This document shows positions 12,727 to 12,752 of a stretch of DNA of 64,000 bases, piece after piece. Position numbers and translations under genes: made by a program. The DNA comes from Escherichia phage RB16: the sequence record NC_014467.1; one strand, given 5' to 3'. How positions within the stretch are numbered: the first letter of the stretch is position 1; each line of letters opens with the position of its first letter. The notes beneath the pieces were generated by a model. It saw only the letters and a list, made by a program, of their open reading frames with translations, was not told where the DNA came from and made no database searches.

Positions 12727-12752
12727 AATAACCTCATAGGGGCCGTAGCCCC

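Follow-up and report, generated by a model that had tools for sequence, protein, structure and literature searches.

Intercistronic stable-tetraloop hairpins of the T4 type on the sense strand of Escherichia phage RB16

Short hairpins with a G/C-rich stem and a loop of four nucleotides recur directly after stop codons in a 64,000-nucleotide stretch of the genome of Escherichia phage RB16 (NC_014467.1). This whole stretch is called the window, and positions are counted from its first letter. What does such a hairpin do at the end of a gene, and does it act in DNA or in RNA? A preliminary description of the window had listed ten hairpins and, since several have no U-run and sit directly before the next ribosome-binding site, had suggested a role in processing or stability over one as plain terminators. 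Our own reading, to which we give a probability of about 0.75, is that they are RNA-level intercistronic stem-loops of the type known from phage T4, which would act as leaky terminators where a U-tract follows the stem and would mark or stabilise the mRNA where none does.

A 4-kb piece of the window is 97.9% identical to Escherichia phage Lw1 (Straboviridae, Pseudotevenvirus) and matches RB43, GAP161 and relatives from Klebsiella and Enterobacter at lower identity. The gp32 and gp41 genes match the IMG/VR contig UViG_648936715 (176,788 bp) at 100% identity and with unchanged coordinates, which places the window at positions 1-64000 of an RB16-like genome. Up to about 31.1 kb the genes of the window, from rIIB to rnh, lie on the minus strand; from 31.3 kb onwards they lie on the plus strand, with the exception of gp27 at 57289-58392. 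The sense strand was set by a codon-usage picker of open reading frames (ORFs) together with the Lw1 and RB43 annotations. This phage has a G+C content of 43%, and T4 one of 34%. A strict scan (loop of 4 nt, 5 or more stem pairs of which the inner four are G/C) found 15 hairpins in the window, an excess of about 10-fold over the mean of 1.5 ± 1.2 (maximum 6) in 200 dinucleotide shuffles. The excess is tied to loops of four nucleotides: loops of 3, 5, 7 and 8 nt occur at chance level, and hits with 6-nt loops are mostly the identical tetraloop hairpins counted one pair shorter. Chance and base composition are ruled out as the cause by the shuffles and by the unenriched loop sizes.

All ten hairpins of the preliminary description are present, each with a perfect G/C stem of 5-7 bp and a 4-nt loop. 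Their coordinates were good to a few nucleotides except for 32467-32484, which lay about 9 nt off; the hairpin there is AAACCCC-TTCG-GGGGTTT at 32476-32493. The list was also incomplete, nine sites having been missed (7236, 11425, 18257, 21842, 24922, 38528, 50516, 51776 and 55859). The 14-mer said to occur in three identical minus-strand copies occurs exactly three times, as GGGGCCGTAGCCCC on the plus strand and hence as GGGGCUACGGCCCC in the minus-sense mRNA.

A broader scan, which admitted tetraloop hairpins with any stem and with G-U pairs at a free energy (ΔG) of -7 kcal/mol or lower, gave 21 intergenic hairpins in the window. Their placement is narrow. At 20/20 intergenic sites the hairpin starts between -2 and +17 nt from the stop of the sense ORF, which bears out the earlier remark that the hairpins come right after stop codons, and the next start codon, assignable at 17/20 sites, follows 10-55 nt downstream of the hairpin. 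Coding sequences hold about 45 hairpins, which are weaker and carry loops of the GNRA or UNCG type in only 2 cases. The sense-stable hairpins with G/C stems have computed ΔG values of -9.7 to -13.3 kcal/mol in the nearest-neighbour model. Folding of sense transcripts, a check that the preliminary description had asked for, retains the hairpins in both the minimum free energy (MFE) and the centroid folds of 70-nt sense contexts, and with ViennaRNA the sense hairpins are 0.9-1.8 kcal/mol more stable than their own complements.

The loops distinguish the two strands. Read on the sense strand, 15/21 intergenic hairpins have a GNRA or UNCG loop; only 3/21 have one on the antisense strand (18257, 24922 and 52215), and 3/21 have one on neither (20617, which reads UUUU, 55859 and 56218). 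The bias between sense and antisense in the window has a binomial p of 0.0075, and the number of stable sense loops, set against the random loop frequency of 12/256, a p of 5e-16. The sense-stable loops are GAAA at 7236, 21842, 38528, 40488, 42780 and 51776, UUCG at 9583, 11425, 32476 and 50516, UACG at 12738, 18836 and 26922, and GUAA at 27952 and 62758. A C-G pair closes the loop in 12/15 of them, the closing pair being A-U at 21842 and 11425 and U-A at 38528. The earlier statement that the sense loop is always GNRA or UNCG is correct for 9/10 of the sites then listed and fails at 20617-20632, which reads UUUU. Equal frequencies in coding regions or on antisense strands, which had been named as the result that would speak against the pattern, were not found: stable loops occur in 2 of about 45 coding hairpins, and on 15 sense against 3 antisense strands between genes.

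The same asymmetry is present beyond the window. Over 1-50 kb of T4, where all genes lie on the minus strand, the same scan finds 9 stable loops on the sense strand (8 UUCG and 1 GAAA) and 0 on the antisense strand. In the replication stretch of Lw1 at 64.5-100 kb, an independent 35 kb outside the window, intergenic bases make up 6.7% of the sequence yet contain 10/19 tetraloop hairpins, with 7 sense-stable and 0 antisense-stable loops. Non-redundant loci from 76 T4-like contigs, retrieved via gp32, carry 35 stable loops on the gp32 strand and 3 on the other (p=7e-8); for this set the six-frame call of intergenic regions was too strict, and only strand totals were used. Purine loading was considered as a source of the strand bias and rejected, since half of the loops are UNCG and its complement, CGNA, is richer in purines. 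These counts uphold the strand-specific reading, in which the loop is important to the RNA and not to the DNA.

The hairpins of the window, named elsewhere by their first position, are listed here.

7236-7253, minus strand: AAACCCC-GAAA-GGGGUUU hairpin followed by UCUUUUUC, overlapping the UAA stop of ORF 7252-7473 and upstream of the gene for the topoisomerase II large subunit; a promoter-like GTTTTC-17-TATAAT overlaps its 3' arm.
9583-9600, minus strand: AAGGGGC-UUCG-GCCCCUU hairpin, 3 nt past the stop of ORF 9604-9933; a weak U-tract, UCUGGAAA, forms the tail, and the following AUG stands at +13.
11425-11452, minus strand: 12-bp hairpin AAAACCCUUGCA-UUCG-UGCAAGGGUUUU followed by GUUAUUUU, after the dexA stop; a member of the CCCTTGCA promoter/stem-loop cassette family.
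12738-12753, minus strand: AGGGGC-UACG-GCCCCU hairpin abutting the dda stop codon, with no U-tract; a Shine-Dalgarno (SD) sequence GAGG begins 3 nt past the stem and is followed by the AUG at +11.
18257-18278, minus strand: 9-bp symmetric hairpin AAAAGCCCC-UUUC-GGGGCUUUU followed by UUGUAUUU; its loop is stable, as GAAA, on the antisense strand.
18836-18849, minus strand: GGGGC-UACG-GCCCC hairpin, 1 nt past the stop of the gp41 helicase gene, with no U-tract; the SD AAAGGU follows.
20617-20632, minus strand: GGGGGC-UUUU-GCCCCC hairpin between uvsX and gp40, with no U-tract and a loop that is neither GNRA nor UNCG.
21842-21857, minus strand: GGGGCA-GAAA-UGCCCC hairpin, closed by A-U and followed by UUUUAUAU, 8 nt past the stop of the gp43 DNA polymerase gene.
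24922-24949, minus strand: 12-bp hairpin AAAGCCCUUGCA-UUUC-UGCAAGGGCUUU past the stop of regA, with a promoter-like TTGCAT-17-TATATT embedded.
26922-26941, minus strand: GAAGGGGC-UACG-GCCCCUUU hairpin in the gp45-gp44 spacer, with 5 U in all in its U run and the following AUG at +23.
27952-27967, minus strand: GGGGGC-GUAA-GCCCCC hairpin, 7 nt past the gp32 stop; the tail AAUUUGAA holds no U-tract, and rpbA starts at +22.
32476-32493, plus strand: AAACCCC-UUCG-GGGGUUU hairpin overlapping the a-gt.4 stop, then a U4 run and the SD GAGG; the gp47 AUG is at +10.
38528-38551, plus strand: 10-bp hairpin GGGAACUGUU-GAAA-AGCAGUUCCC followed by U6, after ORF 36718-38511; a promoter-like TTGAAA-16-TATAAT site ends just upstream.
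40488-40507, plus strand: AAGGGGGC-GAAA-GCCCCUUU hairpin, 3 nt past the td stop; the nrdA AUG is at +17.
42780-42803, plus strand: GAGAAGCCCC-GAAA-GGGGCUUUUU hairpin, 2 nt past the nrdA stop and directly before an inserted HNH homing-endonuclease ORF.
50516-50535, plus strand: AGGCUAUC-UUCG-GAUAGCCU hairpin followed by U5, 5 nt past the stop of ORF 50088-50510.
51776-51799, plus strand: AGCCGUUGCC-GAAA-GGUAGCGGCU hairpin followed by U5, 5 nt past the stop of ORF 51489-51770.
52215-52232: CAAUCUC-UUCG-GAGAUUG hairpin with a U-rich tail, which reads correctly on the minus strand only, within a block that appears plus-sense.
55859-55888, plus strand: 13-bp cassette hairpin AAAAGCCCCUUGC-AUGA-GUAAGGGGCUUUU after the DNA ligase gene, with a loop that is neither GNRA nor UNCG.
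62758-62775, plus strand: AAGGGGC-GUAA-GCCCCUU hairpin overlapping the gp54 stop and followed by the SD GAGG; its UU tail makes a U4 when the last two U of the stem are counted, and the gp51 AUG is at +11.

At orthologous junctions the class of the loop changes while the stem persists. After gp41 (18836) the window and its relatives show UACG, UACG, GAAA, UUCG and GAAUA loops on GGGGC or (A)AGGGC stems, and after td (40488) they show GAAA, UACG (Lw1), GAAA and GAAA (RB43, GAP161). The gp45-gp44 junction (26922) has UACG in the window and in KP15 and UUCG in RB43, as well as the 5-nt loops GUAAU, GUUAA and GAUAA. In the survey of 76 T4-like contigs the junction after gp32 (27952) has GUAA, GAAA, UUCG and UACG loops. 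Of about 20 distinct T4-like lineages, with protein identities down to 32%, about 13 have a sense GNRA or UNCG hairpin right past the stop; none of these roughly 20 lineages has the complementary loop there. The distant lineages add U6-8, whereas the RB16/RB43/KP15 clade has no U-tract at this junction.

The 7236 hairpin is identical in Lw1 and RB43, and the equivalent 39.1/39 junction of T4 has AAAGGCC-UUCG-GGCCUUU. The UUCG loops of 9583 and 32476 are kept in Lw1, RB43 and GAP161, the 21842 hairpin is conserved in the same three phages, and the 18-mer AAGGGGCUUCGGCCCCUU of the T4 gene 43/regA hairpin is identical to 9583-9600 of the window. At 12738, Lw1 and GAP161 share a UACG loop, and RB43 has UUUU. 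The uvsX-gp40 site (20617) has UUCG or GAAA in most relatives, and T4 carries a UUCG hairpin at the same place, just downstream of the uvsX stop; the loop has decayed to UUUU in RB16 and Lw1, to UUU in GAP161 and to AUAA in RB43. The 42780 hairpin is identical in GAP161, where the HNH gene is present too. The Lw1 ortholog of 55859 has a UACG loop, and that of 62758 a 5-nt loop, UUUAU.

Two of the three antisense-stable hairpins are loop flips. The 24922 loop reads UUUC where Lw1 has GAAA, the surrounding 78 nt being otherwise identical, and the site has UUUC in RB43 and GAAA in GAP161. The loop at 18257 is UUUC in three phages and a sense GAAA in GAP161. In both cases the alternative loops (UUUC/GAAA) are exact reverse complements within flanks that are otherwise identical, and their distribution over the four phages does not follow overall relatedness; the flip loci in relatives lie at about 25426-25465 in Lw1 and at about 18140-18173 and 24817-24855 in GAP161. 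This suggests recurrent loop inversion at perfect palindromes. Stems are longest at these two sites (9-12 bp), and in such stems the loop adds least to the stability. The third hairpin, 52215-52232, lies in a replacement of about 850 bp relative to Lw1, and its wrong-strand reading may mean that the loop was flipped, that an antisense transcript exists or that the strand was mis-called. Taken together, the strand-specific loops, the position right after stop codons and the swapping of loop classes argue for a function at the level of RNA rather than of DNA.

A run of at least 4 U lies 3' of the stem at about 15/20 sites. It is absent at 12738, 18836, 20617 and 27952 and likewise in their orthologs: the hairpins past dda, gp41, uvsX and gp32 are conserved in Pseudotevenvirus and Slopekvirus alike, and have no U-tract there. 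The preliminary description was right that several hairpins have no U-run (these four, with 9583 weak). Its proposal of processing or stability elements in place of plain terminators fits only part of the set: it suits these four sites, and the roughly 15/20 that carry a U-run look like ordinary intrinsic terminators or attenuators. The GenBank record of KP15 labels the orthologous hairpins as ARNold terminators; terminators are annotated there at the 21842 and 40488 junctions, and the 18257 ortholog is annotated as one on both strands.

Spacing limits how complete any termination could be. At nine junctions, including gp45-gp44, a-gt.4-gp47, td-nrdA and gp54-gp51, the next start codon lies 10-23 nt past the hairpin; no promoter hexamer pair is found at these nine junctions, and none would fit. 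No mRNA of the downstream gene can then be free of the hairpin, and termination can be partial at most. A stabilising or punctuating role would suit such spacing. The homologs of gp44, gp47, nrdA and gp51 serve core T4 functions.

The comparisons show the structure, the position, the strand specificity and the maintenance of a stable loop through evolution; from these features we infer termination, read-through and stabilisation in the following way. A short G/C helix, capped by an extra-stable UNCG or GNRA tetraloop and usually closed by C-G, would fold in the mRNA as it is transcribed, immediately past the upstream stop codon. Where a U-tract follows, the hairpin is most likely an intrinsic terminator, and a leaky one (an attenuator) at the many junctions where the next gene is 10-25 nt away. 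At the four sites without a U-tract it would most likely mark the mRNA without ending transcription. Such a hairpin could stabilise the upstream cistron, in these cases genes needed abundantly (dda, gp41, uvsX and gp32), by stopping 3'-to-5' exonucleases, and it might also serve the downstream cistron as a protective 5' stem-loop after cleavage. An exonuclease barrier would be the most economical role for these four sites; host 3'-5' exonucleases are known to degrade T4 mRNAs (PMC3014915). More tentatively, and with clear reservations, the hairpins without a U-tract might form a class of their own, former terminators that have lost the U-tract and now act as punctuation setting the half-lives of cistrons, with loop orientation under selection and the flips as exceptions.

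Could all of the hairpins be ordinary, efficient Rho-independent terminators, with tetraloops that merely reflect a general preference of terminators? The G/C stem followed by a U-run at most sites, the KP15 annotation, the canonical hairpin with U6-8 after gp32 in distant T4-like phages and a stem-loop taken from a PeSL cassette of RB49, which equalled rrnB T1 in termination when placed in a lacZ reporter (PMC2839356), all point that way. We nevertheless consider it unlikely for the set as a whole, because four sites are without a U-tract consistently across relatives and because the nine closely spaced junctions need read-through. The opposite proposal, in which no hairpin terminates and all are purely elements of mRNA processing or stability (exonuclease barriers, or landmarks for RNase E or RegB), would account for the U-less hairpins squeezed between a stop codon and an SD, and is in keeping with the exonuclease activity on T4 mRNAs and with the cutting of gene 32 transcripts by RNase E at conserved sites (PMC3014915). 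It leaves the U-tracts at three quarters of the sites with no role, no common cleavage motif surrounds the hairpins, and the nearby SDs are mostly GAGG or AAGG and not the GGAG of RegB; we regard it as improbable.

Two further proposals place the function outside transcription and decay. If the hairpins were translational devices, for termination-reinitiation coupling or for exposing or sequestering the downstream ribosome-binding site, their abutment on stop codons with the next SD within 3-12 nt would be expected; at 12738, moreover, the helix is longer in the MFE fold (z=-2.0), where the end of dda base-pairs with part of the SD and the AUG, and T4 has RNA structures at translation initiation regions, for example those of genes e and 25 (PMC3014915). 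The core hairpin, however, never includes an SD or an AUG, the extended pairings have no covariation support and are absent at other sites, and the same hairpins occur where spacers are long (35-55 nt), which makes this very unlikely. A function in DNA, as PeSL-type recombination cassettes or as palindromes for shuffling, homing-endonuclease insertion or cruciforms, is the least probable of all. It draws on the repeated CCCTTGCA cassettes (10694, 11425, 24922 and 55859) that join promoter-like sequence to a stem-loop, on the 42780 hairpin abutting an inserted HNH endonuclease gene, on the loop flips as signs of recombination or template switching at palindromes, and on the proposal that PeSLs mediate modular shuffling (PMC2839356, PMC4122927). 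A DNA palindrome is strand-symmetric, however, and cannot give loops that are stable on the sense strand only; most of the short GGGGC hairpins lie between conserved core genes, in spacers of 25-45 nt with no promoter; and the gene order at the junctions is the same in Lw1, RB43, GAP161 and KP15.

The reading as T4-type stem-loops with two modes of action has points against it as well. The energy gap between sense and antisense hairpins is small, at about 1-2 kcal/mol, and the z-scores of whole contexts are modest (-0.6 to -2.0). Six of the 21 intergenic hairpins are without a stable sense loop, and three of these are antisense-stable. The division by U-tract is a gradient, with 9583, 40488, 32476 and 62758 marginal. 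In a literature search for Term-seq or 3'-end maps of T4-type phages, nothing specific came up on transcript 3' ends, half-lives or read-through in either this phage or T4.

The hairpins belong to the T4-type class of intercistronic stable-tetraloop hairpins by loop, location and predicted stability. The primary source for the intercistronic C(UUCG)G hairpins of T4 mRNA is reportedly Tuerk et al. (1988, PNAS). Like them, the RB16 hairpins occur in a T4-type phage, just past stop codons and on the sense strand, with C-G closing an extra-stable tetraloop. They differ in that the T4 hairpins have almost only UUCG loops and often longer, mixed stems, whereas RB16 has a near-uniform GGGGC/GCCCC stem, a mix of UACG, UUCG, GAAA and GUAA loops and several copies with no U-tract. 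The UUCG tetraloop itself was first found in T4 mRNA, in the same setting (PMC4371310).

With the intrinsic terminators of E. coli and its phages the hairpins share a G/C-rich stem-loop downstream of genes and, at about 15/20 sites, the U-run; they depart from them at the four U-less sites and in that many lie 10-23 nt before the next start in obligatory polycistronic transcripts. Intrinsic terminators are said to prefer UUCG and GNRA loops (d'Aubenton Carafa et al. 1990, J Mol Biol). Among intercistronic 3' stabilisers are the REP elements of malEFG and the hairpins of the puf operon, and ompA has a 5' stem-loop stabiliser. By analogy with REP and puf, a stable hairpin in a polycistronic mRNA past the more-needed cistron would block PNPase and RNase II; unlike the REP, puf and ompA elements, the phage hairpins are far shorter (14-20 nt), are capped by tetraloops and have no sequence relation to them. 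PeSL and PmSL cassettes (Arbiol et al. 2010, PMC2839356; Comeau et al. 2014, PMC4122927) are likewise intergenic stem-loops with a G-tract, a loop and a C-tract, but they flank ORFans in hyperplastic regions, whereas most GGGGC hairpins are promoterless and lie between conserved core genes. Membership of the listed GGGGC hairpins in the PeSL family was rejected, as the nine closely spaced sites have neither a promoter nor room for one; promoter-like sequence accompanies a hairpin only at 7236, at 38528 and in the CCCTTGCA family (11425, 24922 and 55859). Indels between relatives adjoin 11425, 38528, 42780 and 10694. A search of Rfam at gathering thresholds gave no family matching the hairpins and found only two tRNAs in the window, the adjacent genes for tRNA-Met (CAT) at 49781-49857 and tRNA-Gly (TCC) at 49863-49938.

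The pattern of sense-strand UNCG and GNRA hairpins after T4-type genes is real and statistically solid, and its kind is already known. For annotation it marks about 20 sites of transcript punctuation in a genome of the RB16/Lw1 type; to biology it adds little, such hairpins after T4 genes being a textbook observation. Two modest additions are that loops swap freely between two stable classes at orthologous junctions, with an occasional flip to the reverse complement, and that one clade retains hairpins that have lost the U-tract. Both would offer a cheap natural experiment for separating termination from 3'-end protection.

A separate PeSL-like family is present in the window, with the form CCCTTGCA-loop-TGCAAGGG followed by GTTATATT. 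Its copies lie at 10694-10712 (minus), 11425-11452 (minus), 24922-24949 (minus) and 55859-55888 (plus), and in Lw1 at 64970, 76618, 82617 and 98427 (record coordinates). The consensus is AAA(A)GCCC(C)TTGCA-loop-TGCAAGGG(C)TTT(T)GTTAT(A/T)TT, with an embedded promoter-like TTGCA(T/A)-17-TAT(A/T)TT. The copies at 10694 and 55859 have flanks of about 20 nt in common on each side, and the KP15 record annotates the equivalents as "middle promoter" plus "terminator". The repeated cassette resembles the PeSL/PmSL promoter-terminator cassettes.

Other features adjoin individual hairpins. On the minus strand at about 21787-21835, in the gp43-uvsX interval, the 21842 hairpin is followed by an SD (GAGG) and a mini-ORF of 8 codons (AUG CGU GUA UAU AAA CCG GAA AAA UAA); the stop of this mini-ORF overlaps the uvsX start (UAAAUG), and the mini-ORF could be a leader for translational coupling. 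The Lw1 gene gp012 (record 8986-9630; window ORF 8979-9875) starts upstream of the UUCG hairpin, covers it and overlaps gp013, and its RB43 ortholog ORF011c (9002-9592) starts after the hairpin; the Lw1 start is probably drawn too far upstream, the AUG 13 nt past the hairpin being likelier. The HNH homing-endonuclease ORF at 42805-43295 (plus), between nrdA and nrdB and directly past the 42780 hairpin, is found at this junction in GAP161 and is absent there from Lw1, RB43 and KP15. A sequence like a MotA box (TGCTT), AATAATGCTTGC, lies next to two hairpins, just past that at 51776 (51800-51830) and just before that at 56218 (56200-56217), and these copies may be middle promoters paired with stem-loops.

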